Positions 12,946 to 56,216 are shown, counted from the first letter of the stretch. The stretch: DNA of 64,000 nucleotides from Felixounavirus AN17P8 (OZ035742.1), one strand, 5' to 3'. Notes: generated by a model not told the origin, from the letters alone. A program made the numbers and translations.

Positions 12946-12975
12946 TTGACAATGCACTTGACAAGGTGTTAATCT
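12946..12975 (+). promoter_or_regulatory. sigma70-like promoter in divergent region (tandem TTGACA boxes)
   Basis: gtTGACAatgcacTTGACAaggtg...TAATCT; shares cTTGACAAGGTG with three other promoters. Confidence 0.4.
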
Positions 12976-13142
12976 TTGCGAAGTGGGTTTTTACTTAAAA
13001 GGTTACTTAACAGTTTAGCTATACAGATACTTTAAAACTCTTAAAAGATTATTTAATAGCTTTTAAAAAGCTTTAAAGTATAACGTATAGAATACGTTAA
13101 GATAAAAGATTAAAACTTAATAGTTACTTAAAAGAGGCTTAC

Positions 13143-13565
13143 ATGCAGAAAATGTTTGTTCACCCAGACATAGCTGACTTTGTTAGAGCTTTGCAGAAGT
13201 TGGAAGAACTTGACATTGCTGCTCAACGGGAATATGCTCACCATCACAGGAGAATGGTTGATATACAACATGAAATAGAGTTATCTGAAAACTATGAAGA
13301 TGACTTAAAATGTTCTGTATTTGAGCATATGAAAGATGTTGCTACAGCGAGACGTAAAGCTAAAGACACAGTTGCTTTACTAGATTCTCTTAAAAAGAGG
13401 TTGCAAAGTGGTACAGACCTGTGTAATCTAGCGTCACTGATTAACGATGTTGAAACTTCTTGGGATAGGCACTATTATCCACGTTCTGAAAAGACACTTG
13501 ACTTTTCTTCATCCGAAAACTTAAAATGTTCTAGAAAGAAACTTAACAAACTGAGAGAGAAATAA
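13143..13565 (+). CDS. hypothetical protein
   Basis: First gene of plus-strand block; RBS aagagg. Confidence 0.4.
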   Translation: MQKMFVHPDIADFVRALQKLEELDIAAQREYAHHHRRMVDIQHEIELSENYEDDLKCSVFEHMKDVATARRKAKDTVALLDSLKKRLQSGTDLCNLASLINDVETSWDRHYYPRSEKTLDFSSSENLKCSRKKLNKLREK

Positions 13566-13566
13566 T

Positions 13567-14367
13567 ATGAATATCGATGTAGAAAAGATGCTTGAAGAAA
13601 AAGGTATTGACGAAGCATTTTTAATCAATGCCGTAGAAAGCATGGCTATGATTCTTCGTGGGAACAACTACACAGAACAGTTTATGCCTGCAAGCTATAA
13701 TCTGCCTGAAGACAAGTCTGATAACGGTGCTTTTGCAGAACAGGTTAACATGATGTTGACAGACACTACACTTGCTCTGGCATCTATTGCGGTTGGTGTT
13801 GATGCACTTGCTGAGTTCATTTTTTATGAAATGCAAAAGAATGACTATATCAGGATGTCAGACGAAGATAAGGAACTGTTGCTGACTAAGGACACTGATT
13901 TCATTATTGATACGCTTATCTCATCAACAAGTGCTGTTATGGCTGCTCTTGAGAAGCGTATGGAAGAGAAACTTTCACGATATGAAAAACTTGATTGGGG
14001 TGTAGAAGAACTAAACCAACGAATCAAGGAGATTATCCAGCAAACTAAAGAGTCTTTGGAAGAAGCTGTTGAAAATGACTCTGTAGCTGATATAGAACCA
14101 CTTCAGGTGAAAGTTGCACTGATGATTCCAGCTATCTCTACGATGATGAATATCGTTGCACTAATCCAACTTTCACAGATGATGGGTATGAGTATTGAGT
14201 TCATTGAGGAGATGACTGGTGGTGTTAGTATGCAAACAATCAATGATGTTTTGGTGAATATTGGTGCTTCAATCATTGAAGAGAAACTACGCATTAACTT
14301 CGGTGATGATTTTGTGAAGCAAATCTCAGCTATGGCTGAAAAAGAGTCTGCTGAGCAACTGCACTAA
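13567..14367 (+). CDS. acidic hypothetical protein
   Basis: 266 aa, strongly acidic; terminator follows. Confidence 0.4.
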   Translation: MNIDVEKMLEEKGIDEAFLINAVESMAMILRGNNYTEQFMPASYNLPEDKSDNGAFAEQVNMMLTDTTLALASIAVGVDALAEFIFYEMQKNDYIRMSDEDKELLLTKDTDFIIDTLISSTSAVMAALEKRMEEKLSRYEKLDWGVEELNQRIKEIIQQTKESLEEAVENDSVADIEPLQVKVALMIPAISTMMNIVALIQLSQMMGMSIEFIEEMTGGVSMQTINDVLVNIGASIIEEKLRINFGDDFVKQISAMAEKESAEQLH

Positions 14368-14385
14368 GTCTTTATAAGTCTTACA

Positions 14386-14409
14386 GGCCCCCTTAGTTGG
14401 GGGCTTTTT
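14386..14409 (+). terminator. rho-independent terminator
   Basis: GCCCCC-ttagtt-GGGGGC-TTTTT. Confidence 0.6.
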
Positions 14410-14428
14410 AGTAATTAATGGGGATAAA

Positions 14429-15172
14429 ATGAGTAATATTATCGCATTTACTGGAAAGGCACGTTCTGGAAAAGACACCTCATGTTCTATTGTGAAGAAC
14501 ATCTTAGAGGATGAGTACGGCTACAATGTTGCAGTAATGGCCTATGCAGACAACCTTAAGCTATCTGCATCAAGGATATTTGACCTGACTTGGAATGACC
14601 TGTATGGTGAAACTAAAGAGACTCCACAGGTTTTTGACTTATCATATCCTGGACTAATGTTCAAAGTTACCGAAGCTATGGAGTTCACCTTCAAAGGCGA
14701 ACGTTACCATATGGATTTTAAGCTTATGTCAGAGTTAACCGGACGATTAATCATGGAGCTTAAGAAGGTTGCTAAACCGACTCTATTAACACGTCTGGGA
14801 TTTAGCAAGAAGTATAAATTTTCATCAAGACAAATTCAACAGATTTGGGGCACTGAAGTTATCCGTAAAGTTATGGGTGACAAGTTCTGGGCTAAAGACC
14901 TCGAAAAACGAATGGTAAATTTCTTTGATGTTTGCTCACTTAGAAATCAAGAAGGTGTTGTTTTAATCAGTGATTTAAGATTTGACTCTGAAGCTGAGTG
15001 GCTGAGTAGATTTGCACACCAAACTATTGAAGTAAAAAGAGACAATGTGGACAAAGTTTCATCACATGTTTCAGAAAATGGCATTTCTACAAAATATGAG
15101 CGTGACATTATTCATAATAATGGTACTCTTGCAGACCTTGAGAGCAAACTAAGAGCTATCCTGAAGATTTAA
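14429..15172 (+). CDS. deoxynucleoside monophosphate kinase-like P-loop protein
   Basis: N-terminal Walker A AFTGKARSGKDT as in T4 gp1-type dNMP kinases. Confidence 0.55.
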   Translation: MSNIIAFTGKARSGKDTSCSIVKNILEDEYGYNVAVMAYADNLKLSASRIFDLTWNDLYGETKETPQVFDLSYPGLMFKVTEAMEFTFKGERYHMDFKLMSELTGRLIMELKKVAKPTLLTRLGFSKKYKFSSRQIQQIWGTEVIRKVMGDKFWAKDLEKRMVNFFDVCSLRNQEGVVLISDLRFDSEAEWLSRFAHQTIEVKRDNVDKVSSHVSENGISTKYERDIIHNNGTLADLESKLRAILKI

Positions 15173-15180
15173 AAGAGAGA

Positions 15181-15381
15181 ATGAAGATGAGAGTAAAAGA
15201 TAATTTTAAAGTTATTGACCACCGTTTAGTGGAACTCTCATCTCTTTCCAATGAGGTAATGATTGAACGTCTTAAGAGAGTTGAATCACGAAGGAAAGAG
15301 ATTGCAGATGAAATTCATGAACTGGACAAGATTGAAAATGGATTGAAGGCAGAACTACAACGAAGAGGTGCTAATGTCTAA
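15181..15381 (+). CDS. hypothetical small protein
   Basis: 66-aa coiled-coil-like ORF. Confidence 0.3.
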   Translation: MKMRVKDNFKVIDHRLVELSSLSNEVMIERLKRVESRRKEIADEIHELDKIENGLKAELQRRGANV

Positions 15382-17359
15382 AGGTCGTAAATTGAAAGAG
15401 GCTGGTCAGTTTATTGGTCATTGTGCATGTCCACGTTGTGGTTCATCAGATGCTGGTTCAATCTATCATCATGACGATGATTCTTATTCGATGACTTGCT
15501 TTAGTTGTAACAAAGGTTTCCCAGAGTGGGATTTTGATAAAGGACAAATCGTGAGCACTTATTCTACTGGTTCAGACAATAAAAACCGTACTTTCCGTGG
15601 AATGGATTTAGACGATGTAAAAGAAAACCTAGAAGCAATGGACTTGAAAGACAGGAAGATTCCTGCAAAAGTCCTTGAACGCTTAGGTATAAAGGTTGAC
15701 ATTGACAGTGATGGTGAAATTGATGCGCATTTCTATCCAACTTACAAACGTAATGAAGATGGCAAGCTAGAGCACGTTGGTTACCGTGTACGTCATCGTT
15801 ACCCAGAAGACCATCCAAAAGAACACCTACGAGGTAAGCTAAAAGACTTTTCAGGTGGTGTTGGAGACATTAAAGGTGAACTGGCAATGTTCGGTTCATG
15901 GATTGCTCCAGAAGGTGGTAACCGTCTATTCATCTGGGAAGGTGAGATGGAATGTGCAACAGCAATCTATATGACTTCTCTTGCGATTAAGGACAAGTCT
16001 CGTCGTAAGAATTACTGTCACGTATCTGTTCCATCAGGTGCAAACATTAAGTCTATCAAAGACAACTATCAGTACATTACATCATTTGATGAAATTTACT
16101 TGTGCTTTGATAATGATGAAGCTGGTGCTAAAGCTACTAAAGAGGCTGCTGGTATCCTCCCTATCGAGAAGGTTCGTTTATTCCAGTATCCAGAAGGTGT
16201 AAAAGACCTTAACGAATGGTGGACAAAGTTCTATAAAGAGAAAGATACAGTTCTGGAAGGATTTAAGCAGCGTATCTACAATGCACCTCGTTACTGTCCT
16301 GCTGGTATCAAGAACTTCGCAGATGGTTTTGAGGCAATGAAGAATCGTGGTCAGATTCCATTGATTCCTTTCCCAGAATCTTTCGGAGATTTGAACAGAC
16401 TGACTTATGGTGGTTATGGTCTAGGTGAGATTACAACTCTGGCAGCACCATCTTCAGTGGGTAAATCAGCATACACTCGTGAAATGATTTACACAGCTTG
16501 GAAAGATACCGATTACAATATTGGTGTAATTCCTGTAGAAGATACCTATGAAGAGTTGATGGAGATGCTCTGTGCAATCCACCTAAGCAAGCAGATTTCT
16601 GAGATTCCTTATGACGAACGTGATTGGGATGAATTGAAGGAAGCACACGCAGAACTATCTAAAGGTCGTCGTATCCACATCGTAGACCATCAAGGGGCAA
16701 TTGACCAAGATAACTTGCTGGAGTTTGTTGACTATCTTGTTAATAGTTTAGACTGTAAGATTATTATTCTTGACCCTATTACGTTGGCTCTGTCACGTTC
16801 AGATACGGATGAAGAGGAAGTTTTGTCTGAGCTATTGCGTCGTTGCAAACGCTACCAGTATGCACAGGTAAACGTCTGTCACGTTCGTAAAAGTGCAGGT
16901 GGTCAGAAGGCTAACTCCGAAGGTGGAGATATCTCTGAAGAGGATATTAAAGGTTCTGGTGCGTATTTCCAGATTTCTATGAACAACATCCTGTTAATGC
17001 GTAACAAAGTTGACCCAGACCCTGTTAAGAAAAACTTGACAAAAATCAAGCTAACTAAATGTCGTCGTCACGGTAAGTCAACGGGTATTGCTGGTCATAC
17101 TTGGTACAATCCAGATACAGGACGCCTCATCAAAGCATCTGGTTGCGGAGTTGACATTGATGGTGCAGCAGAAAATATTCGCCAACAGTTTGGTATTGGT
17201 GAAGCTGAAGACCATTACGATGACTCTTTGCCACATTATGAGGATGAAGTGTTTGACCGTGAGACTGGTGAAGTCTATACTGAAGAGCAGCGCCAAAGCT
17301 CAACGATTCCACCTGTATTAAGTGAGGATGCAGATGACTGCCCATTCGAAACTGAGTGA
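15374..17359 (+). CDS. bifunctional primase-helicase (T7 gp4-like)
   Basis: Zinc ribbon CPRCG...CFSCN; TOPRIM EGEMEC...DNDEAG; helicase Walker A APSSVGKS and Walker B IIILDP. Start moved from GTG 15368 to ATG 15374. Confidence 0.8.
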   Translation: MSKGRKLKEAGQFIGHCACPRCGSSDAGSIYHHDDDSYSMTCFSCNKGFPEWDFDKGQIVSTYSTGSDNKNRTFRGMDLDDVKENLEAMDLKDRKIPAKVLERLGIKVDIDSDGEIDAHFYPTYKRNEDGKLEHVGYRVRHRYPEDHPKEHLRGKLKDFSGGVGDIKGELAMFGSWIAPEGGNRLFIWEGEMECATAIYMTSLAIKDKSRRKNYCHVSVPSGANIKSIKDNYQYITSFDEIYLCFDNDEAGAKATKEAAGILPIEKVRLFQYPEGVKDLNEWWTKFYKEKDTVLEGFKQRIYNAPRYCPAGIKNFADGFEAMKNRGQIPLIPFPESFGDLNRLTYGGYGLGEITTLAAPSSVGKSAYTREMIYTAWKDTDYNIGVIPVEDTYEELMEMLCAIHLSKQISEIPYDERDWDELKEAHAELSKGRRIHIVDHQGAIDQDNLLEFVDYLVNSLDCKIIILDPITLALSRSDTDEEEVLSELLRRCKRYQYAQVNVCHVRKSAGGQKANSEGGDISEEDIKGSGAYFQISMNNILLMRNKVDPDPVKKNLTKIKLTKCRRHGKSTGIAGHTWYNPDTGRLIKASGCGVDIDGAAENIRQQFGIGEAEDHYDDSLPHYEDEVFDRETGEVYTEEQRQSSTIPPVLSEDADDCPFETE

Positions 17360-17611
17360 TAGTTATAAAAGAGAGGGGTTCACACCCTTCTTTGAAGAAA
17401 AAAGTTTAAATAAATTTCAGGAAGAGTGTTTGACAAAGATTGATAGGTTCTATAGAATGCTCCTTATGAAATGCGATGGGGAAGTTGAGATAAAAGAAGA
17501 TTTCCACCAAAGCATGATTACAGTCATCATTGCGCTGCCTCAGCATAATATTAGCTGGCTGTTTATAATTAAAGAAAATGTGTTTGAATATCAAGTATAT
17601 CGGAGAATATC

Positions 17612-17761
17612 ATGAAACACTCTAAAGCATTTGAAAAAGTTTTTGGGGATTCCTTAAAAGCCACTGCTGGAAAACCAGCAAAATACTATGAAGAGAAACG
17701 TGTAAGAACTGGAAAAACTGCACGTAAAGCAGCTTCTAAAGATAAGCACAACTTCCAGTAA
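17612..17761 (+). CDS. small basic protein (49 aa, below track cutoff)
   Basis: ATG with RBS ggag; MKHSKAFEKVFGDSLKATAGKPAKYYEEKRVRTGKTARKAASKDKHNFQ. Confidence 0.3.
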   Translation: MKHSKAFEKVFGDSLKATAGKPAKYYEEKRVRTGKTARKAASKDKHNFQ

Positions 17762-17768
17762 TTAGTAT

Positions 17769-17798
17769 TTGACAATAGAGTATCAACAAATTAGAATT
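17769..17798 (+). promoter_or_regulatory. sigma70-like promoter for putative SSB gene
   Basis: TTGACA-N18-TAGAAT about 36 nt upstream of ATG 17834. Confidence 0.55.
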
Positions 17799-17833
17799 GG
17801 TACTCTTCATAAATTGAGATAGAGGTTTAAATA

Positions 17834-18691
17834 ATGTCTAAAGTTGTTAAAATGAAAGCTCCGGTAGAGAAGTACAACGGTACTGAACGTCAAACTCTGC
17901 GTTACCTGCTGAAAGACGTCTGGTTTTATTACCTGAACACTTCACCACGTCCGGGGAAAGGTAAGTCTATTGATAAAAAATTCCCAGGAAAAGATTGTAA
18001 CTACAGCGTATCAATTCTGGCAGAGGATGGTAACAAACTGTTTAAAGAGTTTACTAAGTCTAAGAAAAATCCAGAAGGCTGGGATAAAGTTACTACTGAA
18101 GCAGTTGATGCAGATGACTTCGAAGAGAAGTTTGGTTGTAAACCACCTTTTGAAGCAGATACTTACTACATCTTGAAAGTAAGTCGTGCAGCAGCTTATA
18201 AAGATGGTGCTGTATGGACAGCTAAACAGTCATTCCCTGTAATGCTGATTGAAGAAGTAAATGGTAAGCGTGTAGCTGTTAAGCAGCCGATGAAGAAAAT
18301 CAAAGCTCAAGCATCTGATAAACATGAAGATGACAAGAACTATGACGTAATTCATCCAGATATCGCAGTTGGTAACGGTTCTTTTGGTAGTGTGATTCTT
18401 TCTACTCACTTCTACACTTTTGAGAACAATGTTCTGACAAAACCTATTCAGGAACAGTTTATCATTGATACTCTTGTACCTTACACTGGTGGCAACGGTG
18501 CTAACGGTGAGCCTGAACTGGATGAAGATGAACTGGCTATGCTTGGTCTTGATGGTGTTGAAGATAACGGTGAAATCACTGAAGAAGACGCAACAGACCA
18601 TAAATCTTCGAATGCTTCTGATGATGGTGATGATGAAGATTTGCCAGACCCAGATGACGAAGAAGATGAAGACTTCGATACAGAAGACTAA
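17834..18691 (+). CDS. putative ssDNA-binding protein
   Basis: Strong promoter upstream; extremely acidic C-terminal tail ending DEEDEDFDTED, as in T7 gp2.5-type SSBs. Confidence 0.45.
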   Translation: MSKVVKMKAPVEKYNGTERQTLRYLLKDVWFYYLNTSPRPGKGKSIDKKFPGKDCNYSVSILAEDGNKLFKEFTKSKKNPEGWDKVTTEAVDADDFEEKFGCKPPFEADTYYILKVSRAAAYKDGAVWTAKQSFPVMLIEEVNGKRVAVKQPMKKIKAQASDKHEDDKNYDVIHPDIAVGNGSFGSVILSTHFYTFENNVLTKPIQEQFIIDTLVPYTGGNGANGEPELDEDELAMLGLDGVEDNGEITEEDATDHKSSNASDDGDDEDLPDPDDEEDEDFDTED

Positions 18692-18709
18692 TCTCTAAAA
18701 GTTACTTTA

Positions 18710-18737
18710 AAGCCCTGTACTTAGTATGGGGCTTTTT
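18710..18737 (+). terminator. rho-independent terminator
   Basis: AGCCC-(loop)-GGGGCT-TTTTT after SSB-like gene. Confidence 0.5.
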
Positions 18738-18753
18738 CATATGGAGAGCCATA

Positions 18754-19794
18754 ATGGAGAAGTACACATTAACAAAACTTCCCGATTCAGTTACACATGT
18801 TTTTATTGACTCTGACAGCATTGCCTATAAAGGTGCTTGTGTAGTTGAGAAAGCAAAATATAAATATGTCAATAAACTCACAGCAGAAGAATCTGATTCG
18901 TTTGATAATGCAAAAGATGCTGCAAGATGGTTAGCAGACCAGAGAATCCTTGTGGAAGAGCTTGGTCTGACATTTGATGAAGATGAATGGGAAAGACAGA
19001 CTTGGAAAGAAGCTAAGAGTGAAAAAGAAGCTATCATGGCTACTCAACAGGTGCTTCAGGAATGGCTTAAGGTTGTTGGTAAAGAAAGAACTTGGGTAGG
19101 TTATTTAACAGAGAAAGGTGTGCATAAACATAAAGACGTTAAAGGTCTTGAGCACCAATATCAAGGCAACCGTAAAGATGCTGTCACACCAACACACCTA
19201 GTTGCTTGTCGTGAGTATCTTCTGTCAAGACCAGAGTTCAAACTCTTAAAGGGTGGCTTCGAAGCTGATTCAATCGTAATTGCTAAAGCTGAAAAGATGG
19301 GTAAGAAAGCCGCTCTTATGAGTATTGACAAAGACCTTCGACAAGCTGAAGGGACTTATTGTATTGATATGACTTATGAAAAATCACCACTAATTTTTAT
19401 TGCTGACAATAATGTTGGTGATATCTGGGATTGTCCTATCAAATCAAAACCAAAAGCTGCAAAAACAGTTGGTGTAGGTTTTAAATTCTTGTGTTATCAG
19501 GCTGTTGCTGGAGATAATGCAGACAACTACTTCGGCCTTAAGGGTGCTGGTAAAGTAGCTGTGATGAATGCTTTAGATGGTAAAGAGACCTATAAAGAGT
19601 GTCTTGACGCTATCTATGAACTCTATGCTAAAAAAGACTCTTATACCTATGTGTCATGGGATGGACAGACTGTTACAAAGACACCGTTAGAGTTAATGGA
19701 ACAGCATTTCTGGATAGCATATCAAGAGAGAAATCCAAAAGATAATTTCTCTTTCAAGAAATATAATTGGGAGCCGTGTATGAATGAAGATTAA
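18754..19794 (+). CDS. 5'-3' exonuclease / flap endonuclease
   Basis: N-terminal VFIDSDSIAYKGA and H3TH-like AGDNADNYFGLKGAGKVAVMNAL. Confidence 0.6.
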   Translation: MEKYTLTKLPDSVTHVFIDSDSIAYKGACVVEKAKYKYVNKLTAEESDSFDNAKDAARWLADQRILVEELGLTFDEDEWERQTWKEAKSEKEAIMATQQVLQEWLKVVGKERTWVGYLTEKGVHKHKDVKGLEHQYQGNRKDAVTPTHLVACREYLLSRPEFKLLKGGFEADSIVIAKAEKMGKKAALMSIDKDLRQAEGTYCIDMTYEKSPLIFIADNNVGDIWDCPIKSKPKAAKTVGVGFKFLCYQAVAGDNADNYFGLKGAGKVAVMNALDGKETYKECLDAIYELYAKKDSYTYVSWDGQTVTKTPLELMEQHFWIAYQERNPKDNFSFKKYNWEPCMNED

Positions 19795-20281
19795 AGGATT
19801 TGGCAATTGTCCCACCTATGGTCATTGGGTATCTTTATGTGGGGAAGTTGACCCCACTAAACATTTTGGCTTTGTCTATTTAGTACACTGTAAGAAGACT
19901 GGACAATATTATATCGGAAAGAAACAGCTTAACAGTGTGACCAAAAGAAAAGTTGCTGGGAAGACTCGGAAGAAGGTAGTCACTAAGGAAAGTGATTGGA
20001 TGACTTACGAGACTTCTTCTGAGTATATTAAAAAAGATATTGAGAGCTTTGGAAAAGAATTTTTTGACTTTTACATTATCCAAACCTACTACACAAAAGG
20101 TGGCCTAGTTTATGGTGAAGCAAACCTTCAACATAAGTTCGATGTAATGACAAAAAGGATTGACTCGAAGCTCAGACTCTTCTACAATGCCAATATTGCA
20201 GCAATTAAGTTTATTACTAAAGAAACTTATGAAGATGCTGAAAAAAGAATCCATAAGGTAATGAAAGTAAATTGTGCTTGA
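19784..20281 (+). CDS. GIY-YIG family endonuclease
   Basis: N-terminal FVYLVHCKKTGQYYIGKK matches GIY-(10)-YIG spacing. Confidence 0.5.
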   Translation: MKIKGFGNCPTYGHWVSLCGEVDPTKHFGFVYLVHCKKTGQYYIGKKQLNSVTKRKVAGKTRKKVVTKESDWMTYETSSEYIKKDIESFGKEFFDFYIIQTYYTKGGLVYGEANLQHKFDVMTKRIDSKLRLFYNANIAAIKFITKETYEDAEKRIHKVMKVNCA

Positions 20282-28212: not shown

Positions 28213-28215
28213 AAC

Positions 28216-28245
28216 TTGACAAGGTGGTGTGGGTGTTGATAGGCT
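28216..28245 (+). promoter_or_regulatory. sigma70-like promoter downstream of nrdD
   Basis: acTTGACAaggtg...N18...TAGGCT (TAnnnT). Confidence 0.4.
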
Positions 28246-28367
28246 TACATCACCTTTTTTTATTGGGTGTTAGATATGGCAGAGAATATTATTGGGTTGT
28301 TCATAGGTTCTGTCTTACTAGGGTTCTTTTTAGGACTCTCTTATTGTGAATTGAGAGATAAGTTAAA

Positions 28368-44094: not shown

Positions 44095-44182
44095 AAAGTA
44101 CTTTACAAGGGGCTTATAGTTCGATAAAGTAAGCCCCAGATAAAGAGCTTTACCACTAAATCCTAAATTGGAGAACTTAAAA

Positions 44183-44473: not shown

Positions 44474-44561
44474 TAAAGTACTTTACAGGGGGCTTAAAAG
44501 TTGATATCTTAAGCCCCAGATAAAGAGCTTTACCACTAAATCCTAAACTGGAGATTCAAAA

Positions 44562-48600: not shown

Positions 48601-48630
48601 GCCCCCAATTAAGGAGGCTCTTAAGATATT

Positions 48631-49236
48631 TTAAATCAGTGTTTCCAGAACTGTTTTTAATGATGACTTGGTTGTCTGATAAAAATGAGTGAATCTATTG
48701 TTGTTATCAAATATCTGCATCATAACAGCATCTCCCTTGATTGGGTACACTCGGATATCATAGTGAAACCCATTAAAGACAGCAGAACCGTTACAGAACA
48801 CACTAAAATCATCCACTGAGATATACTCTTCATGCCCTGTGATTTTTATACAGACACCTTTGCTCGGTCTCTTAGGGTTGATATCTTCCATCACAGACAT
48901 ATTCTGTCCACCAAGAGATACCATAGTGACCACTTTACGGTTCTTCTGTTTAAAGTACATCTTAACTTTCTGTAAAGTGTCTTCATAGAACGGATAAGAC
49001 TTCTCTACAAAGATTCCTTCTAATGGCTCTTTACCATTTTCAACTTCTCTGTTATGCCGTACTGCAAAGATAATTTGTTCGAACCAGTCAAGATTTTCTT
49101 CGGAGAGTGCTTCTCGAATATCACTCCAGTCAAGGACTAGGTAGTTACCTTCAACTTCTTTTAAGTTATCTTTTTCCATAGCTATCACACCATTATCGTA
49201 AAACTTGGTAATCTGGTACTGCAAACTTGTTGTCAT
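48631..49236 (-). CDS. hypothetical protein
   Basis: 201 aa; internal ATG at 49179 is an alternative start. Confidence 0.4.
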   Translation of the reverse strand: MTTSLQYQITKFYDNGVIAMEKDNLKEVEGNYLVLDWSDIREALSEENLDWFEQIIFAVRHNREVENGKEPLEGIFVEKSYPFYEDTLQKVKMYFKQKNRKVVTMVSLGGQNMSVMEDINPKRPSKGVCIKITGHEEYISVDDFSVFCNGSAVFNGFHYDIRVYPIKGDAVMMQIFDNNNRFTHFYQTTKSSLKTVLETLI

Positions 49237-49657
49237 TGTTTTTAATGAGGTCTTCTTCTGTTACTAAGAATGTAAGACCACACAAGTGTGTATATCGGCT
49301 ATCATACTCAAATATTTTAAGTAAGTATTTACCATCATGATAGACAGATTCTACTACACCTTTTGCAACAATCTTCCCAGTCTTGAAGTCTTTAAGACGG
49401 TATACATTACCAACTTTAGGGACTGTTTTCACTTCAGGTTCTTTTAGCTTCTCACCAGCTTCTACATCACCTAGTAAGTGAGAACTTTCAAACGCTACAT
49501 ATTGCATATAAGCTTCTGAGCATTCCCAGATAAAACAATGTACAAGCACCTTAGCAGCATGTCTTGAGCAATTCAGCTTATCACAAATGTCATTGTACAT
49601 TTCATCTTTAGTTGAGTTGTCAAGCATTGCTTTTTGAACGACTTCTTTAATTTTCAT
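49193..49657 (-). CDS. hypothetical protein
   Basis: 154 aa. Confidence 0.4.
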   Translation of the reverse strand: MKIKEVVQKAMLDNSTKDEMYNDICDKLNCSRHAAKVLVHCFIWECSEAYMQYVAFESSHLLGDVEAGEKLKEPEVKTVPKVGNVYRLKDFKTGKIVAKGVVESVYHDGKYLLKIFEYDSRYTHLCGLTFLVTEEDLIKNNDNKFAVPDYQVLR

Positions 49658-49710
49658 TTCGCTACCTTCTAAGTTTCTACAAAGGGGCTATCAAGTAACC
49701 CCTCAAGCTA

Positions 49711-49935
49711 TTACTCAGACTTTTCAGTCTTCTTATCGGATTTCTTACTAGTCTTCTTCTCACCTTTCTGCTCAGGTTCCTTCTCAGAAGTTGCCTTGAT
49801 AACCATATCAAGAAGCTCTGATAAGTCACTCTTCAGCAAAGTAACAGGCTGCTCATTGTAGAAGTTTTTGTCAAGATAAACTTTGAACTCTTCTATAGAA
49901 GGAAATCCAAAAATTGGTACAGGTGTCTTAATCAT
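49711..49935 (-). CDS. hypothetical protein
   Basis: 74 aa with Lys/Glu-rich tail. Confidence 0.35.
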   Translation of the reverse strand: MIKTPVPIFGFPSIEEFKVYLDKNFYNEQPVTLLKSDLSELLDMVIKATSEKEPEQKGEKKTSKKSDKKTEKSE

Positions 49936-50011
49936 TACTTAGTCTCTCCATAGGCATCTTTCAAGATTGCCTTGTTAATCATTTCAGCGATTGCAAAACG
50001 AACACATACAG

Positions 50012-50515
50012 CTATAATTGTAGGTTGCATTCTTTACTTACCTCTTCAAGTTTAATCTCCGAGTCCTTAAGTCGTTTCTTATGAACTCTGAATCTCATTA
50101 GTGAGATGATGATACCAACTAAAGGGACAACATACAAGTACCAAACATCATATACCTTTGCAGTAATCTGTGTAATGGTCAAGTCTTGAGCTATGTAGCT
50201 GATTGCTGAGACGGCTAGTAATGTTGCTAAGAAGAAAACCAGTATCATAACAATATTCAGACAACCTCTGGCATGGTATTCATGCTTAATGCACTTATTC
50301 TTCTCTTCAACAACCCTGTTGTAGTCATTTGTAAAGTCTCTGTAGAAAGCTTTCAAGTATTCTTGACTATAGCCTTCAAAGCAACCTGTACCGTACCAAT
50401 AATCACCACCGAAATGTGCTATGATACCAGTATCTCCATTTGGTTTGGTTACTTTCAAAGAAGTATGATGGTGAGTGTCCTGATAATCTATCTTATATCT
50501 TTCTTCGTAAATCAT
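50012..50515 (-). CDS. membrane protein
   Basis: Two predicted TM helices (IVMILVFFLATLLAVSAISYI; LYVVPLVGIIISL). Confidence 0.4.
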   Translation of the reverse strand: MIYEERYKIDYQDTHHHTSLKVTKPNGDTGIIAHFGGDYWYGTGCFEGYSQEYLKAFYRDFTNDYNRVVEEKNKCIKHEYHARGCLNIVMILVFFLATLLAVSAISYIAQDLTITQITAKVYDVWYLYVVPLVGIIISLMRFRVHKKRLKDSEIKLEEVSKECNLQL

Positions 50516-50730
50516 TTTTCAATCCCTCTCAATCGTTTGTTCCACTCAAGGTCAACAAGTCTTTGCAGGACTTTCCCTCTAGGTGTTACACCTTTTAAAT
50601 CTGCATCGTAACAATGGTAAAAATCACCTTCAGCATGTCTACCATAGCATTTTCTGATGTTCTGACTTCTACGATACTGCTCTAATAGGGACAGTTTGTA
50701 GTAATCTTCAACTGTAGTTAGTTTTTTCAT
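50512..50730 (-). CDS. hypothetical protein
   Basis: 72 aa, coupled. Confidence 0.35.
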   Translation of the reverse strand: MKKLTTVEDYYKLSLLEQYRRSQNIRKCYGRHAEGDFYHCYDADLKGVTPRGKVLQRLVDLEWNKRLRGIEK

Positions 50731-50813
50731 TCTTTCACCACGTATCTTCTCAAGAAACTAAAAAGGGAACTACCTCTCGATAGCTCCCATCATAGTTAAT
50801 GTTGTATATTCGG

Positions 50814-51395
50814 TCAAGAGTATTTTTTAGGCAGTAATGCACTGCGCTTGTTGCTCTCTTCACTCAATAGTGCGATAAATTCATCACCTTTACCCTTCCA
50901 CGGGCTGAATGTCGGAATGTGCTCTCTGATAGCATCAATCACTGTTTTCAGGGCGTTGTTCTTTAACCACCAATCAGACACTGCCGAAGCTACAATGTAA
51001 TAAGCACCATCATCTGTGAAGATTGGCTCGGAGATACATGGTGAAATCATGGTAGTAATGATAGAACCATTATTCATGTAGTATGTTCTTTTTTCAACCT
51101 TGTCAAGAAGCTTATGAAGGTCTGCAAAGAGACTCACAACCTCTTTATGGTCAATATCTTTTTCAAGATTTGCTCTATATTTCAATAGTGCAGCATCGAC
51201 CTCTTTGTCATTGAATTTGAAGTATTGAACTTCTTCATTCACACATACACTGATGTTGTTGGTGTTTATCGTCAATTTGCACAGTTTGACTGGAGAGTTA
51301 ATGTTGGTCTGAAAAAGTGCTACACAGCCTTCTACATTCCCGAAATGTTTGACTAATGTAACTTCTGGTTGGATGTGCTCATGTTCTTCTGACAT
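50814..51395 (-). CDS. hypothetical protein
   Basis: 193 aa. Confidence 0.4.
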   Translation of the reverse strand: MSEEHEHIQPEVTLVKHFGNVEGCVALFQTNINSPVKLCKLTINTNNISVCVNEEVQYFKFNDKEVDAALLKYRANLEKDIDHKEVVSLFADLHKLLDKVEKRTYYMNNGSIITTMISPCISEPIFTDDGAYYIVASAVSDWWLKNNALKTVIDAIREHIPTFSPWKGKGDEFIALLSEESNKRSALLPKKYS

Positions 51396-51739
51396 TATAG
51401 TTTCCTCATTAAATACTTTTTAAGTTGTGTGTTAGGTTTCTCAAAAACTTCTATAGAAGATATCTTGACAGACTCACCACGCATACCTGTATGTTTAAAT
51501 ATATAGTACTCTAACATCCCTATGTACTTTGCTGGTAAGTCGTGTTTGACATACACTGTTACAGAATCTTCAAATTCAACAACCTTTGTACCATCTTTGT
51601 AGTTAAACTCTTTAGGATGGTTGTAGTTGTCGATATCGTACATTAAAAAGAGTCTTTTCCGTTGCATGTCAAGCTTATTGGTTAAAGACTCTTTAATATC
51701 TGAGAAGTTTTTGTACACTGTGACATGGAGCTTACTCAT
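51395..51739 (-). CDS. hypothetical protein
   Basis: 114 aa. Confidence 0.4.
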   Translation of the reverse strand: MSKLHVTVYKNFSDIKESLTNKLDMQRKRLFLMYDIDNYNHPKEFNYKDGTKVVEFEDSVTVYVKHDLPAKYIGMLEYYIFKHTGMRGESVKISSIEVFEKPNTQLKKYLMRKL

Positions 51740-52025
51740 CGTTAAACTCTCTGACGAAGAAATAGTTGACTTTATTATTACCTACCATAAGGTCAAAGCA
51801 GGTATTCTCAAAAGGTTTGTTGTAGGCATCGTATGAAGTGTACGTATCAGCTACTTGTTTAGTATTGAGCTTTTTACTTGATGGGTTTAAGAGGCCACCA
51901 TACAGTTTCTTGATAGCCTCTTCTACAACAGACCAGATGATTTCGTCAGTAATTTCTTCGTACAGGTCAAGTTCACGCTCTAGTGAGAAGTCACAAATAG
52001 GGAAGATAACCTGTACTTTGCTCAT
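51732..52025 (-). CDS. hypothetical protein
   Basis: 97 aa. Confidence 0.4.
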   Translation of the reverse strand: MSKVQVIFPICDFSLERELDLYEEITDEIIWSVVEEAIKKLYGGLLNPSSKKLNTKQVADTYTSYDAYNKPFENTCFDLMVGNNKVNYFFVREFNDE

Positions 52026-52420
52026 TAACGAATAACCTGTGAAACTTGAATTGCTTCAGTTACAGACAAATCACCAACTTTCTCTTCTTTGATGAAAGTA
52101 AAGGTGAGTTCAACAGGTTCTTGCTCTTCTTGCTCAACTGGAATACCGTTAAGCTCATCAAAGATTGATTGGGTAGTCCAGTCTTCTCCACCATCTGGAT
52201 AGTGGATGGCATAAAGAGGAAACTCTAAATTATACCAAGCAAAAACAGGACAACCGTCTGCATCATCTCGGCATCTGTGGAGGTACGTATTTGTACCTTC
52301 AAAATGCAAATGAAGATTGCCATTCTTCTCAAATAGAAGAGCATCTCGCAGGTCTAGTTCCTCATTTTCGCTGTAACGACTGACATCAACTTTAACGTGG
52401 ATATGACTGTTATTATTCAT
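52025..52420 (-). CDS. hypothetical protein
   Basis: 131 aa, acidic. Confidence 0.4.
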   Translation of the reverse strand: MNNNSHIHVKVDVSRYSENEELDLRDALLFEKNGNLHLHFEGTNTYLHRCRDDADGCPVFAWYNLEFPLYAIHYPDGGEDWTTQSIFDELNGIPVEQEEQEPVELTFTFIKEEKVGDLSVTEAIQVSQVIR

Positions 52421-52811
52421 AAAAACCTCTCTCTGCTTGTTCGATTTTTGCTCTTAAAGTTTCGCAATGCTGTAAATGGTAGTTAGCTTCTTGTTCATGT
52501 GTTGCTAACTGCCTTTCAAGAACAGTTTTATAGTAACCTGCAAGTTGCTCTTTTGTCAATGGGTGCTCTGAAATAATATCAAGTCCACTTTCACCAAGAG
52601 GGTTGAATTGTCCATGTTCATTGACATTGTAAGTCTCAAACTTGAACAGGCCATTGTTCACAGACTCAATAGGTGACAGTTCAACAAGTTCTACAGTAAA
52701 CCGTGTATACACCTTGTCACCTCTTGAAACCACATTGCTTCCAATGATGCGTACAAGTGAACCATTACGAGTGTATTTAAAAGTCCCAAAATCACTAGCC
52801 CAAAGCTTCAT
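52413..52811 (-). CDS. hypothetical protein
   Basis: 132 aa; minus-strand terminator upstream. Confidence 0.4.
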   Translation of the reverse strand: MKLWASDFGTFKYTRNGSLVRIIGSNVVSRGDKVYTRFTVELVELSPIESVNNGLFKFETYNVNEHGQFNPLGESGLDIISEHPLTKEQLAGYYKTVLERQLATHEQEANYHLQHCETLRAKIEQAERGFYE

Positions 52812-52824
52812 AGTTTTCTCCTTA

Positions 52825-52852
52825 GAAAATAAAAAAGGCTCCCGAAGGAGCC
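52825..52852 (-). terminator. rho-independent terminator (minus strand) after endolysin
   Basis: Minus-strand reading: GGCTCC-ttcg-GGAGCC-TTTTTTATTTT. Confidence 0.6.
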
Positions 52853-52862
52853 TATGAAGATA

Positions 52863-53327
52863 TTACTTTGGATATACACTGTCAAGATAAATGTCAGCTT
52901 CCATTCTACGTCTATTTTTCAAGCCGTTTGAAGTTACCTTCTTACCTTTGACTGTAATCTTGTTCCACCACTGCATAGCTTCTGCACAACCTACCTTATT
53001 ACCAGCATTGTGGCGCTTGATAAATGTAGAGTCCTGCATAGCTGTGATACCGATGTTATATGTTTCACTTACAAGTGCATCAAACTCGTTCTGAGAAGTT
53101 GGAACCTTGATGGATTTGTTCACTGCTGCAACGAACTTTTCAACATCTGCGAGAAGATACTGTTCAGCTTGTTCAGCGGTAATCTTCATACCCATCTTAA
53201 CAGGCTTACCAGCAATACGGATAGTCCCATACCCAATTGTGGGGATTCCAGCAGAATCTTCGTAAGCCTCTAACTTAAGACCTTCAAAGAACTTAATAGC
53301 TTCTAAACCTTTCTGTGAGAGTTGCAT
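52863..53327 (-). CDS. endolysin, T4-type lysozyme (GH24-like)
   Basis: LEAIKFFEGLKLEAYEDSAGIPTIGYGT aligns with T4 lysozyme catalytic region (Glu, Asp, Thr triad). Confidence 0.85.
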   Translation of the reverse strand: MQLSQKGLEAIKFFEGLKLEAYEDSAGIPTIGYGTIRIAGKPVKMGMKITAEQAEQYLLADVEKFVAAVNKSIKVPTSQNEFDALVSETYNIGITAMQDSTFIKRHNAGNKVGCAEAMQWWNKITVKGKKVTSNGLKNRRRMEADIYLDSVYPK

Positions 53328-54712
53328 TATGCCTCCCCTGCTGGGTTAACTGTAACTGTTGCCGCATTAGATGTTACAGAGCCACCTGCGCCAGTCACTA
53401 CACAAGTGTAGCTTCCCGCATCAGCAGTGGTTGCACCTTCTTTGGTGTAAGTTGCAGTAGTTGCATCGAGGATGTCTTCCTCACCTTTCTTCCACTGGTA
53501 ACCTGTCGCACCTGTTGCCACAACATTCAGCGTTAATGTTTCACCTTCACTGATTTCTTGATTGGTTGGCTGTTGAGTGATTACCGGAAGTGCATTCACA
53601 GTAACTGTTGCTGCATTAGATGTGACTGTTGTGCCACCTGCACCAGTAACTACACAGGTGTATGAACCAGCATCGGCAGGAGCTACACTAGCTTTCGTGT
53701 AAGTCGCACCAGTTGCACTAGGGATGTTCACATTGTCCTTTTTCCATTGGTAACCTTCTGCGCCTGTAGCCTCAACACTCAGTGTCAAAGAGTTCCCCTC
53801 ATTAACTACCTGATTGGTTGGCTGCTTGGTAATAACTGGTAAAGCATTTACCGTGACAGTTGCAGGGCTAGAAGTAACAGAACCACCTGCACCTGTTACG
53901 ACGCAAGTGTATGAACCTGCATCTGCTGGCAGAGCGCCAGACTTGCTATAGATAGCCTCTGTAGCCGAAGGAATGTCAGAGCCATCTTTCTTCCACTGGT
54001 AACCCGTTGCACCCGTTGCAGTCACTTCCAAGCTGATGTTTCCACCCTCATTGATGGTCTGGCTAGAAGGTTGCTGTGTAATCACAGGTAGTGCATTAAC
54101 AGTAACTGTTGCCGCATCTGAGGTAACGCTTGTCCCAGCCTCTCCAGATACAACACAAGTGTATGAACCAGCATCAGAAGGGGCTACAGACTGTTTTGTG
54201 TAGGTTGCAGATGTGGCGCTAGTGATATCCTCACCATCTTTTTTCCATTGATATCCAGTGGCATTAGTTGCAATAACGCTTAGGTTAAGTGTACCACCTT
54301 CATTTACTGTTTGATTGGTTGGTTGCTGAGTGATTGATGGTGGCTTGATAGCGTCCTTCAACTTAGCATTCAACATTGAGAATGGTTTAACTCTTGCCAG
54401 CCACTCACAATAAACTGTATCAACGTCTTTACCATTGATAATTGCATATTGTAAGTCCATGAAGAAGTCAGAAGTTCTCATTTGAGCACCAACGCTGTAA
54501 AGCAACTCATCACTAAATGGGACTTTGTAGTCCGGTTTGTAGTCAAACTTCTCAACTTCTGCAATATCAGCTTCAGGCCAATACGAACTATAGGTGAGTG
54601 GTAAAATAGCCTCTTGATATGTTCTAAAATCATATCTCTTACCAGCCTTTACATTTGCAATGAAGCCCTTCACAAACTCTTTGAAGTCTGGGTAAGTCTT
54701 TGCTTTAATCAT
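53327..54712 (-). CDS. protein with N-terminal domain plus four tandem Ig-like repeats
   Basis: Four ~83-aa repeats each with QWKKDG and DAGSYTCVVTGAGG (Ig-like Gly-x-Tyr-x-Cys); N-terminal ~125 aa paralogous to adjacent gene. Confidence 0.6.
   Translation of the reverse strand: MIKAKTYPDFKEFVKGFIANVKAGKRYDFRTYQEAILPLTYSSYWPEADIAEVEKFDYKPDYKVPFSDELLYSVGAQMRTSDFFMDLQYAIINGKDVDTVYCEWLARVKPFSMLNAKLKDAIKPPSITQQPTNQTVNEGGTLNLSVIATNATGYQWKKDGEDITSATSATYTKQSVAPSDAGSYTCVVSGEAGTSVTSDAATVTVNALPVITQQPSSQTINEGGNISLEVTATGATGYQWKKDGSDIPSATEAIYSKSGALPADAGSYTCVVTGAGGSVTSSPATVTVNALPVITKQPTNQVVNEGNSLTLSVEATGAEGYQWKKDNVNIPSATGATYTKASVAPADAGSYTCVVTGAGGTTVTSNAATVTVNALPVITQQPTNQEISEGETLTLNVVATGATGYQWKKGEEDILDATTATYTKEGATTADAGSYTCVVTGAGGSVTSNAATVTVNPAGEA
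53346..54340. repeat. four tandem ~249-bp coding repeats (Ig-like domains)
   Basis: Units start near 53346, 53594, 53843, 54094 with shared GTAACTGTTGC...CACCTGCACC strings. Confidence 0.75.
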
Positions 54713-55080
54713 TTCTTTTTAGCCTCTAAATGTGCGTTTAGTCTAAAATAACCTTTGTGATGCGGAGATACATCACCAACAACGATACCTTTAACCTTAT
54801 AACCTTTACCAATTACATACTGGATATCCATAAGGAATCTTCCAAGACCAACAATATGGAACATTGGATATAATAGATTCTCAGAGTCTGGAATATTGAT
54901 TTCAGGTTTGTAGGTGCGTTGTTCGCTTGTTGGTGTAATATCTTCTTCAGGCCATTTACTGAGTCTCCATGTCAAAGGTGTTGGGATAACATCATTAAGG
55001 TTGTACCTTTCACCATTTTGCACGGAATTGATATAGGATTGTAGGAAGCAATAAAAGTCTTTTGCACTCTTAGCTTTCAT
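54709..55080 (-). CDS. paralog of the N-terminal domain of the Ig-repeat protein
   Basis: MKAKSAKDFYCFLQSYINSVQNGERY and FLMDIQYVIGKG align with MIKAKTYPDFKEFVKGFIANVKAGKRY and FFMDLQYAIINGKD. Confidence 0.5.
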   Translation of the reverse strand: MKAKSAKDFYCFLQSYINSVQNGERYNLNDVIPTPLTWRLSKWPEEDITPTSEQRTYKPEINIPDSENLLYPMFHIVGLGRFLMDIQYVIGKGYKVKGIVVGDVSPHHKGYFRLNAHLEAKKK

Positions 55081-55127
55081 TAAATATCCTTATAAGTAGT
55101 TAAAGGGGCATTAGCCCCTATTCACAC

Positions 55128-55718
55128 TTAAGCTTTGGTCTTAAGTAGGTTCTTAAGTTTTTTAAGATTCATACTCTCATCAAACTTAAAACCAAATCCA
55201 TTGACATAATCAATGAACTCGGATTTCTTACTGAGTGACAATGCGTAACTCATATCAAAGTTCTTACTTGTTTCTGCGTCTGGACTAGAGTTCACATCAA
55301 ATGAAATTTCTGTAGGCTCTTGTTTACTTTTTCTCATGTTATCAACCAACAAACATGTATAGTTTGCTGGATAGAAATTTACACTACCATCAACGTAGCT
55401 GTATTTATTATTATGGATAAGGTTGGAAAATACCTTAAGAAATGTTTCTGAGTCGTGGCAAACAAGTTTGAATTGGCTGCTCTCTCCAAGCGCAACTAAT
55501 GAGTACGGACTTTCACTATCAAAGTCATAATTTGGATTCGATGCCGTTACTGTTACACGCATCAAGTTATTAGCAATAGTCTTCTGTTTAAAAGAATTTT
55601 GAACATAGTGAAGACCTCTCTCACACTGATTGACTAGCTCTTTAAGTAGGTCATTTGCATATGGTGAATTAATTGATACAGAACCATCACTATTGTAATT
55701 AAAACTTACTGTTAACAT
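55128..55718 (-). CDS. hypothetical protein
   Basis: 196 aa. Confidence 0.4.
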   Translation of the reverse strand: MLTVSFNYNSDGSVSINSPYANDLLKELVNQCERGLHYVQNSFKQKTIANNLMRVTVTASNPNYDFDSESPYSLVALGESSQFKLVCHDSETFLKVFSNLIHNNKYSYVDGSVNFYPANYTCLLVDNMRKSKQEPTEISFDVNSSPDAETSKNFDMSYALSLSKKSEFIDYVNGFGFKFDESMNLKKLKNLLKTKA

Positions 55719-55945
55719 TTTTCAGTTCTCCTGCGATTTATAATTTTGCTGCAATAGAGAAACGAAGTAAACTCACTGGAAGAAACCATTAAGTGTTGTT
55801 CACTAGATTGAGCCATTGCCCTGAAATACATTCCAGTCAAAGCATCATAGTGACTATTCTTTCCAATTGAGGTTATATAGCCATGACTCTTTGCAGTTTG
55901 ATATAAATCTATAATATCTGCGATTTCTAATTGGGAACTACACAT
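55712..55945 (-). CDS. hypothetical protein
   Basis: 77 aa. Confidence 0.3.
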   Translation of the reverse strand: MCSSQLEIADIIDLYQTAKSHGYITSIGKNSHYDALTGMYFRAMAQSSEQHLMVSSSEFTSFLYCSKIINRRRTEKC

Positions 55946-56109
55946 AGATAATCCTCTTGTCTTCTGTAATTTTGAAAGAACAGGTACAGACCAATTTCAG
56001 AGGATGAATAGTAGATTAACTCTACCCTTTTTGATTCCTTACAGTGATTGGTATTCTTACCTTTCTTCGGTTTATTTGATTTTCTCATTAAGTCTCCTTT
56101 GTAGAACAA
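55927..56109 (-). CDS. hypothetical basic protein
   Basis: 60 aa, first gene after divergent promoter region. Confidence 0.3.
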   Translation of the reverse strand: MFYKGDLMRKSNKPKKGKNTNHCKESKRVELIYYSSSEIGLYLFFQNYRRQEDYLCVVPN

Positions 56110-56187
56110 GGCAGACCTACAGCTTTAAGTAAGATGGTACAGTAATCCATACAACAAGTCAAGAACTATTGCAAGTTAAAAAAGTTG

Positions 56188-56216
56188 TTGACAAAGTACT
56201 TGACAAGGTGTAGGCT
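56188..56216 (+). promoter_or_regulatory. sigma70-like promoter in divergent region (tandem TTGACA boxes)
   Basis: gtTGACAaagtacTTGACAaggtgTAGGCT; near-identical to 12946 element. Confidence 0.4.

Follow-up and report, generated by a model that had tools for sequence, protein, structure and literature searches.

A string built on the hexamer TTGACA recurs in a stretch of 64,000 nucleotides from Felixounavirus AN17P8 (OZ035742.1; this whole stretch is called the window here), and an initial annotation had taken it for the core of a phage promoter class with an extended recognition element, possibly read by a modified host polymerase or a phage factor. We analysed the copies of this string together with their orthologs in related phages, and the sites are best read as ordinary phage promoter architecture, not as a new promoter class. 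The window belongs to a felixounavirus: the best megablast match of positions 12000-20000 was Escherichia phage finno (98%; 272 phage records), and nearly all of the 272 matches were Felix O1-like myoviruses. Gene order was assigned by analogy with the annotated SUSP2 and Michonne genomes. The layout below contains two divergent intergenic regions, 12916-13142 and 56110-56337, which the Felix O1 genome paper names 96/97 and 40/41 (PMC3185647).

10186-12915, minus strand: DNA polymerase gene, the last of a minus-strand block
13143-46604, plus strand: block with primase/helicase, nrdAB, nrdD, rIIA, rIIB and many small open reading frames (ORFs), followed by a 2-kb non-coding gap
26068-28212, plus strand: nrdD
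35197-37563, plus strand: rIIA
37642-38751, plus strand: rIIB
48631-56109, minus strand: block beyond the non-coding gap
56338 onward, plus strand: block with the gene 41 homologue, tRNAs and, past the end of the window, structural genes
58373-63585, within the block from 56338: 26 tRNAs

Five copies of the string were found, one of which the initial annotation had missed:

12957-12968, 28215-28226 and 56199-56210, plus strand: exact copies of CTTGACAAGGTG
37567-37578, plus strand: variant copy, CTTGACAAGGGG
9642-9653, minus strand: exact copy of CTTGACAAGGTG, the fifth and previously missed one

The pattern TTGACAAGG(T/G)G (TTGACAAGGKG) matched the window five times where 0.13 matches were expected, and none of 100 shuffles of the window reached five. 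Likewise, the 82 occurrences of TTGACA in the window were followed by AGGTG four times and by AGGGG once, against an expectation of 0.15. All five copies are intergenic and oriented towards the gene that follows. Two copies with one mismatch lie inside ORFs, at 12184 on the minus strand (within the DNA polymerase gene, the same string being kept in Michonne) and at 51096 on the minus strand (within ORF 50814-51395). These counts, the shuffles and the intergenic placement indicate that the string and its enrichment are real, so that the recurrence and intergenic position described in the initial annotation held, and the string proved commoner than composition predicts, a check which that annotation had proposed. 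However, only the copies at 12957 and 56199 head plus-strand blocks, as had been stated for all four; those at 28215 and 37567 stand between nrdD and small ORFs and between rIIA and rIIB. Similarly, a TAnnnT element does follow TTGACA at the predicted 17-18 bp at 28215 (TAGGCT, 18 bp) and 37567 (TAGAAT, 18 bp), as well as at the newly found 9642 copy (TACCTT, 17 bp), but at 12957 and 56199 the TAATCT and TAGGCT elements begin only 6 and 5 bp past the TTGACA of the motif. The assignment of hexamers to sites had also been wrong, as TAGGCT is present at both 28215 and 56199.

An exact TTGACA is found in each of the five motif copies and again upstream of two of them (12946 and 56188). The sites split into two architectures, which we designate class A (9642 on the minus strand, 28215 and 37567 on the plus strand) and class B (12957 and 56199 on the plus strand). 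A reading of AAGGTG as a Shine-Dalgarno sequence was rejected: an ATG lies 3 nt downstream at 9642, where it opens a 10-codon mini-ORF, and at none of the other sites. No earlier description of the motif was found in the searchable literature, and no promoter analysis is given in the wV8 and VpaE1 genome papers.

In class A sites TTGACA is followed at 17-18 bp by TAnnnT. The spacer is taken up by a hairpin that starts at the AAGG of the motif, pairs this AAGG with CCTT at the foot of its stem, and adjoins or overlaps the -10 element:

9624-9653, minus strand: putative class A composite promoter, with motif CTTGACAAGGTG (9653..9642), -35 TTGACA (9652..9647), 17-bp spacer and -10 TACCTT (9629..9624)
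9647-9624, minus strand: hairpin AAGGTGCTC/GAGTACCTT, which occupies the spacer and overlaps the -10
28216-28262, plus strand: putative class A promoter combined with a terminator, immediately behind the nrdD stop (28212), with -35 TTGACA (28216-28221), 18-bp spacer and TGaTAGGCT, in which the -10 is TAGGCT (28240-28245)
28221-28256, plus strand: 14-pair hairpin beginning at the motif's AAGG and followed by T7
37568-37597, plus strand: putative class A composite promoter between the rIIA stop (37563) and the rIIB ATG (37642), with -35 TTGACA (37568-37573), an 18-bp spacer formed by hairpin AAGGGGCTTcaAAGCCCCTT (37573-37592) and -10 TAGAAT (37592-37597)
44102-44141 and 44482-44521, plus strand: two copies of a cassette that resembles class A, CTTTACAAGGGGCTTA...TAAGCCCC, where TAAAGT stands at 17 bp

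The hairpin at 28221-28256 was terminator-like in a consensus scan (14 pairs and a T-run) and folded with -20 kcal/mol (z -3.7). Other terminators in the same scan likewise start with AAGG or AAGAGG, and the ASO1A and Michonne records annotate the hairpin at this site as a rho-independent terminator. Among class A sites the signature of hairpin plus T-run was confined to this one; neither the hairpin at 37568 (AAGGGGCUU/AAGCCCCUU; -16.5 kcal/mol, z -3.0) nor the weak one at 9647 (AAGGUGCUC/GAGUACCUU; -13.1 kcal/mol, z -1.5), which is placed between the stop of an HNH endonuclease gene (9649) and a gene for a 69-aa protein (9597..9388), has a T-run. The 37568 site scored 11 of 12 as a promoter in the consensus scan. 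A stable stem-loop between the -35 and -10 elements or over the -10 was thus found at 28216, 37568, 44102 and 44482, and weakly at 9647. The look-alike cassettes at 44102 and 44482 have the form CTTTACA(A/G)GGGGCTTA...TAAGCCCC, and their hairpins reached z values of -4.65 and -3.45 by folding. Between the small ORFs at 44096-44530 and in other gaps at 43-46 kb we observed such cassettes in the form AAAGTACTTTACA(A/G)GGGGCTTA...TAAGCCCCAGATAAAGAGCTTTAC, which resemble promoter-early stem-loops (PeSLs, discussed below) and correspond to the '57-bp repeat' family listed in Felix O1 without a functional interpretation (PMC3185647). SUSP2 carries several copies of this cassette in regular gaps of ~88 bp between genes.

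Orthologous class A sites were drawn from IMG/VR via their flanking proteins. At the nrdD site, where the window was aligned with 16 distinct IMG/VR variants, TTGACA was present in 16 of the 17 sequences and TTGACG in one, and TGATAGGCT was invariant in all 17; the extension took the forms ATGGTG, AATGTG, GAGGTG and AAGGTA. The stem covaried, GGTGGTG:CATCACC being replaced by GGTAGTG:CACTACC with one compensatory change from a GC to an AU pair, and five further pairs had a one-sided change that retained pairing, with pairing broken in two cells of the alignment. At the rIIA/rIIB site all recovered Ounavirinae variants kept the -35 (TTGACA or TTGACT), the GGGGCT/AGCCCC stem and the -10 (TAGAAT or TAAAAT), while the flanks diverged and the spacer measured 18 or 17 bp. 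Here the -36 base was T in most felixounaviruses, and other genera had AGGGG or TGGGG in place of AAGGGG. The element at the HNH site accompanied the downstream 69-aa gene in relatives with or without the upstream HNH gene, and its -36 base was G, A or C. The neighbourhoods of these elements were variable as well: an HNH gene directly before the 9647-type element that precedes the 69-aa gene is present in some of the loci L126-L139 and missing from others, some relatives (L052, L053, L055, L056 and L061) have a different sequence straight after the nrdD stop, and the phiSUSP1 and Si3 records annotate a homing endonuclease at the locus downstream of nrdD.

At class B sites, a second TTGACA starts 12 bp before that of the motif, and the motif lies inside the spacer of this upstream promoter, because TAATCT and TAGGCT sit 17-18 bp from the upstream TTGACA. 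Each site lies back to back with a minus-strand promoter candidate:

12946-12975, plus strand: putative class B promoter heading the 13143-46604 block, with -35 TTGACA (12946-12951), an 18-bp spacer holding motif CTTGACAAGGTG (12957-12968), TG (12967-12968) and, one base further on, -10 TAATCT (12970-12975)
12916-12944, minus strand: putative divergent partner promoter of the DNA polymerase block, with TTGCTT (12944..12939), 17 bp and TAATGT (12921..12916)
56188-56216, plus strand: putative class B promoter heading the block from 56338 onward, with -35 TTGACA (56188-56193), a 17-bp spacer holding motif CTTGACAAGGTG (56199-56210) and a TG that abuts -10 TAGGCT (56211-56216)
56134-56162, minus strand: putative divergent partner promoter of the minus-strand block, with TTGACT (56162..56157), 17 bp and TACCAT (56139..56134)

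The motif's own TTGACA faces AAGTGG at 17 bp in the first case (12958-12963), which is no usable -10, and TACTTA in the second (56200-56205), which is a poor one. A TAnnnT at 16-18 bp was therefore reached from the motif's own hexamer at 9647, 28216 and 37568, and at class B sites via the upstream hexamer only. The GenBank record of AYO145A marks as a promoter precisely TTGACA(N18)TAATCT, that is, the upstream hexamer. The working class B promoter would most simply comprise an A-tract, the upstream TTGACA, 17-18 bp, TG and TA(N3)T, which takes the form TAnnCT at both sites.

The tandem hexamers and the -10 element (TAATCT or TAGTCT) of the DNA polymerase site were kept in three genera, represented by the window, SUSP2 and Michonne; sampling of this site beyond the three is thin, because searches of a locus through a single protein gave mostly close relatives. 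The gene 41 site had an invariant core in all recovered Ounavirinae variants, made up of the two TTGACA hexamers, the A following the second one, the TG and TA(N3)T, whereas the five bases between the hexamers and the GG varied (AAGGTG, AAGCTG, AACGTG, AAGATG). The minus-strand partners were conserved in the same three genomes: TTGCTT-N17-TAATGT, which abuts the plus-strand -35, was kept by eye from the alignment (TAGGGT in Michonne), and TTGACT-N17-TACCAT was identical. Folding gave no significant hairpin at 12958 (z -1.45) or 56200 (z -1.7). The 12957 and 56199 regions are paralogous over ~200 bp, and Michonne has a third copy. A reading of the palindromic TTGTCAA as the -35 of a divergent minus-strand promoter was rejected: at the DNA polymerase site the two TTGTCA are spaced 10 and 22 bp from the minus-strand TATAAT, this TATAAT is not kept in SUSP2, and better minus-strand promoters exist at both the DNA polymerase and gene 41 sites.

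Each class B promoter would drive a long conserved 5' leader:

56224-56337, plus strand: conserved 5' leader in which ACTTAAAAG boxes occur and a long hairpin is predicted at about 56243-56323
12976-13142, plus strand: paralogous leader behind the 12946 promoter, with ACTTAAAAG boxes and the palindromes AGCTTTTAAAAAGCT and ACGTATagaATACGT

Between genera, the 56224-56337 leader has 91-94% identity and the coding sequence that follows it 77-81%. The hairpin of this leader has 30 predicted pairs with one compensatory CG/UA pair. In the other leader, the palindrome ACGTATagaATACGT has two compensatory changes in Michonne (three sequences compared). The sequence CTTAAAAG occurs 22 times in the window, where 5.2 occurrences were expected. 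In Rfam the window matched nothing but tRNAs, and neither leader gave a credible match. The 56224-56337 region may serve as a regulatory leader RNA.

The bases that were to set the motif apart from an ordinary -35 element, C at -36 and AGG(T/G)G after TTGACA, were not kept at orthologous sites. The -36 base is C at all five sites in this genome and C, G, A or T among relatives, and AGG is replaced by TGG, ATG, AGC, ACG or AGA, or shortened to GGGG. Because C at -36 and AGG are variable, the extended recognition element is unsupported, and with it the idea of a modified polymerase or phage factor reading it. In class A the extension is the 5' arm of the hairpin, and in class B the sole invariant part past TTGACAA is the TG beside the -10. 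What is conserved across Ounavirinae genera is the hexamers, the -10 boxes and the TG near the -10 (at class B and at the nrdD site). The alignments thus indicate that the conserved set consists of canonical promoter elements, the class A stem, and the TG and second TTGACAA of class B; the extended motif itself does not belong to it.

We consider it probable, from these sequence features, that all five sites are promoters for unmodified host sigma-70 RNA polymerase, and that the extra bases have two local causes instead of a shared element. The promoter part of the initial annotation is supported at the level of sequence by the consensus -35, the spacing of TAnnnT, the upstream A-tract, the intergenic position and orientation, and the hexamers kept across genera. 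A catalogue of intergenic TTGACA-type sequences in the window contained ~17 plausible sigma-70-like promoters, mostly with an upstream A-tract (AAAAGTTG-TTGACA), and at least eight promoter-like sites were wrapped by inverted repeats, among which the hairpin at 17769 has a compensatory change in SUSP2. In the Felix O1 genome, no phage RNA polymerase or sigma-modifying protein was identified (PMC3185647), and naked FelixO1, VpaE1 and Alf5 DNA gave rise to infectious phage in an all-E. coli cell-free system (PMC13591810), which fits first-wave promoters read by the unmodified host polymerase. In our model, transcripts arriving at a class A site from upstream would fold the hairpin, leading to termination or attenuation (clear only at 28215, which has the T-run), and polymerase would re-initiate at the embedded promoter. 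Transcription would start at ~28252, within the 3' arm (-10 at 28240-28245), and at ~37604, past the hairpin, so that the new RNA would lack a complete hairpin. Class A sites would in this way reset transcription at the boundaries between nrdD and small ORFs, between rIIA and rIIB, and between the HNH gene and the gene downstream of it, and class B sites would act as two paralogous divergent control regions together with their minus-strand partners.

Several observations weigh against the host-promoter model. The -10 boxes are weak, TACCTT, TAATCT and TAGGCT each matching the consensus at three of six positions, and our literature search, which was in part poorly aimed, returned no start-site, transcriptome or in vitro transcription data for Felix O1-like phages. 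The hairpin at 9647 is weak and that at 37568 has no U-tract, leaving the label 'terminator' uncertain at these two sites, while 28221-28256 carries no label but that of a terminator in the databases. In L063, which is more distantly related, the terminator that follows nrdD is not accompanied by TTGACA, and therefore the -35 was gained by, or lost from, the terminator within the subfamily. In class B, the second TTGACAA is under purifying selection, yet it has no -10 or assigned function. Finally, four identical 11-mers at unlinked sites, where 0.15 were expected, are hard to credit to two independent constraints, and may instead reflect shared ancestry, gene conversion between cassettes or a shared factor.

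The last two observations also favour a true extended element, in which a phage protein, by binding the 11-12-mer (TTGACAAGGTG) or the tandem TTGACAA repeats, would switch a subset of promoters on or off, the second TTGACAA being invariant across genera. The candidate binders would be a sigma-70-remodelling factor or the 109-aa Cro/C1-type helix-turn-helix (HTH) protein of the HTH_3 family that is encoded in the window at 4575-4904 on the minus strand; CTTGACAAG forms a 9-bp palindrome when the sequence is read directly, and iteron units (CTTAACAAG) at 47.0-48.6 kb are one base from the motif. We nevertheless regard this alternative as unlikely, given the variable C at -36 and AGG at orthologous sites, the pairing of the extension in a hairpin at three sites, with inner sequence that is site-specific and covarying, and the absence of TTGTCAA from the iteron array (0 occurrences). 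In addition, no phage sigma factor or appropriator is annotated, and the naked DNA is infectious in E. coli extract. The motif as a variant of the 47-48.6 kb iteron was rejected too: the two are one base apart, but the array has no TTGTCAA and a period of 11 as opposed to 12 bp. Could the class A sites at 28215, 37567 and 9642 instead be terminators or RNA-stability hairpins only, with an incidental TTGACA beside them and no initiation? The annotation of the nrdD-site hairpin in GenBank records, the terminator without TTGACA in L063, and the listing of similar TTGACA-bearing hairpins (t42/t43) as terminators in the Felix O1 paper are consistent with that possibility. We find it very improbable, however, as each of the three sites has kept TTGACA together with a TAnnnT at 17-18 bp in different genera, the rIIA/rIIB hexamers are retained despite a change in spacer length, TGATAGGCT in the nrdD hairpin is invariant though pairing needs only part of it, and the 37568 site scores 11 of 12 as a promoter and lacks a U-tract.

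The identity of the copies might also result from the spread of one ancestral promoter cassette, copied or homogenised by recombination, an explanation that is compatible with host sigma-70 promoters and that we put forward tentatively as a possibility. Shuffling mediated by PeSLs has been proposed for T4-type phages (PMC2839356, PMC4122927). Here, the paralogy of the 12957 and 56199 regions with their third copy in Michonne, the '57-bp repeats' at 44102 and 44482 as a cassette family between small ORFs, the C at -36 that all five sites share in this genome while relatives differ, and the presence or absence of HNH or homing-endonuclease genes beside the 9647 and 28216 elements all point in this direction. 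However, the 9647, 28216 and 12958 sites have only the 12-mer in common, and homing alone accounts for the endonuclease insertions.

A further alternative concerns class B alone. Its two regions and the third Michonne copy would together form a dedicated regulatory module, in which a phage protein or a second polymerase would bind tandem TTGACAA boxes at a distance of 12 bp, with a structured leader RNA behind them. We think this unlikely, although a factor binding the second TTGACAA of the two divergent-region sites may exist. If the module were real, the leader might make polymerase resistant to the hairpin terminators in the two 30-kb plus-strand units, in a put/nut-like manner, or it might serve as an operator in processing or translation. 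The occurrence of almost the same tandem -35 design in unrelated T4-like metagenomic contigs would in that case point to a promoter architecture that recurs and has not yet been described. This design came from a loose IMG/VR scan with the pattern TTGACAN6TTGACAANNTG, which forces only the hexamers and the TG and gave mostly chance matches, so that it is of use only for the T4-like family. Among the matches listed, at least about 17 related metagenomic contigs have the same design (for example aaaagttgTTGACAAAGGGCTTGACAACGTGTATAGT):

Contigs with tandem TTGACA: L185, L187, L192, L201, L206, L216, L219, L220, L232, L235, L253, L257, L261, L263, L264, L269, L273 and L275

This family keeps the tandem hexamers 12 bp apart, the C before the second, the TG and TAnnnT, while the intervening bases vary. 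Among the matches listed, 21 of 98 unique ones from outside Ounavirinae have TAnnnT within 1 nt of the TG; because most of these come from the contig family, it amounts to at most one further independent instance. The only contig checked, L201, encodes T4-like UvsW (uvsW) and UvsY (uvsY) and an Mre11-like protein; its element (3907-3929, minus strand) opposes the neighbouring ORFs and is followed by conserved sequence.

Among known systems, PeSLs resemble class A most closely; they are composite promoter/terminator cassettes of the T4-type phages RB49/phi1, PST and nt-1, and both of their activities have been demonstrated (PMC2839356, PMC4122927). In both, a sigma-70 promoter close to consensus follows an AT-rich tract and is combined with a stem-loop that mostly lies between the -35 and -10 or over the -10; both are located between a stop codon and the next Shine-Dalgarno sequence; and the A3-4G3...C3T3-4 or polyG/polyC stems of PeSLs are similar to AAGG...CCTT and GGGGCTT...AAGCCCC here. 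A concentration of repeated cassettes among variable small ORFs, linked to insertions and deletions, is a PeSL trait that may extend to these phages: the 44102 and 44482 copies lie among small ORFs, the gaps of ~88 bp between small genes in SUSP2 are regular, and the endonuclease genes beside the 9647 and 28216 elements are variable. However, the lineage here is Ounavirinae and not Tevenvirinae, and the promoter and terminator activities of our elements are predictions. Class A also flanks conserved core genes (nrdD, rIIA/B), in contrast to the orphan ORFs flanked by PeSLs, except for the 44.1-44.5 kb copies among small ORFs, and class B sites, which are without a hairpin, fall outside the PeSL family.

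The strong early sigma-70 promoters of lytic coliphages, such as those of T4, T5 and T7 (A1-A3), have TTGACA, a 17-18 bp spacer, an upstream A-tract and, in the extended -10 type, a TG before the -10, and are read by unmodified host polymerase. The sites described here share the TTGACA, spacing, A-tract and TG and would likewise head early units, but their -10 boxes (TAGGCT, TAATCT, TACCTT) are unusually weak. The TG also abuts the hexamer at 56211, whereas the canonical extended -10 is TGn, and class B differs in having a second conserved TTGACAA in the spacer, 12 bp downstream of the first. We know of no described function for a second TTGACAA inside a promoter spacer. With rho-independent terminators, 28221-28256 has in common a GC-containing stem, the T7 and its annotation in related genomes; 37573-37592 and 9647-9624 differ in lacking a U-tract, and all three hairpins lie within promoter-like sequence.

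The Felix O1 genome paper named three unknowns: the promoters of the divergent regions, how polymerase gets through the many terminators, and temporal control (PMC3185647). The analysis provides concrete putative promoter assignments for five boundaries, both divergent control regions included, and suggests that Ounavirinae share a compact promoter-inside-terminator cassette design with T4-type phages. These assignments should help the annotation and engineering of Felix O1-like therapeutic and diagnostic phages; they leave the picture of phage transcription unchanged and would come as no surprise to specialists.

Some further features of the window were observed alongside these sites. T4-type late promoters were rejected as a reading, as TATAAATA was neither enriched (2 matches in the window, 3.66 expected) nor conserved, the copy at 56217 not being kept in other genera. 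The gap at 47000-48650, between convergent blocks, holds an array of iterons with 31 TGTTA(A/G) units, 11 times denser than in the rest of the window. Their consensus is cTTGTTAGa / cTGTTAAg and their commonest spacing exactly 11 bp, and three copies in inverted orientation (47392-47414) are set against four in direct orientation (47439-47472). The genome-wide densest iteron window of SUSP2 and of Michonne overlaps the corresponding non-coding gap, and the array is a candidate replication origin or protein-binding array.

On the minus strand, a 500-bp non-coding stretch (5560-5930) lies upstream of a promoter-like sequence, TTGACAAGTCAGGTG...TATTTT (TTGACA at 5537..5532, minus strand). Visual inspection of this stretch showed some three repeat blocks of ~125 bp, rich in NNGGT pentamers (CTGGT/AGGGT/GAGGT); Tandem Repeats Finder gave periods of 5, 10, 15 and 30 bp, and repeats are present in SUSP2 too. 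The operon downstream of it includes the HTH_3 protein encoded at 4575-4904. Just upstream of the tRNA cluster, the hairpin AAAGGGTATTGACAATGTGTTTAATACCCTTT at 58218-58250 corresponds to the bidirectional terminators t42/t43 of Felix O1, and contains TTGACA-N17-TAATAT. At 34605-34656, where ORF 32840-34621 ends, a TTGACA-N16-TATGAT (11 of 12) has a terminator-like hairpin (34633-34656) immediately behind it, which makes a further overlap of promoter-like and terminator-like sequence, with the promoter upstream of the stem.

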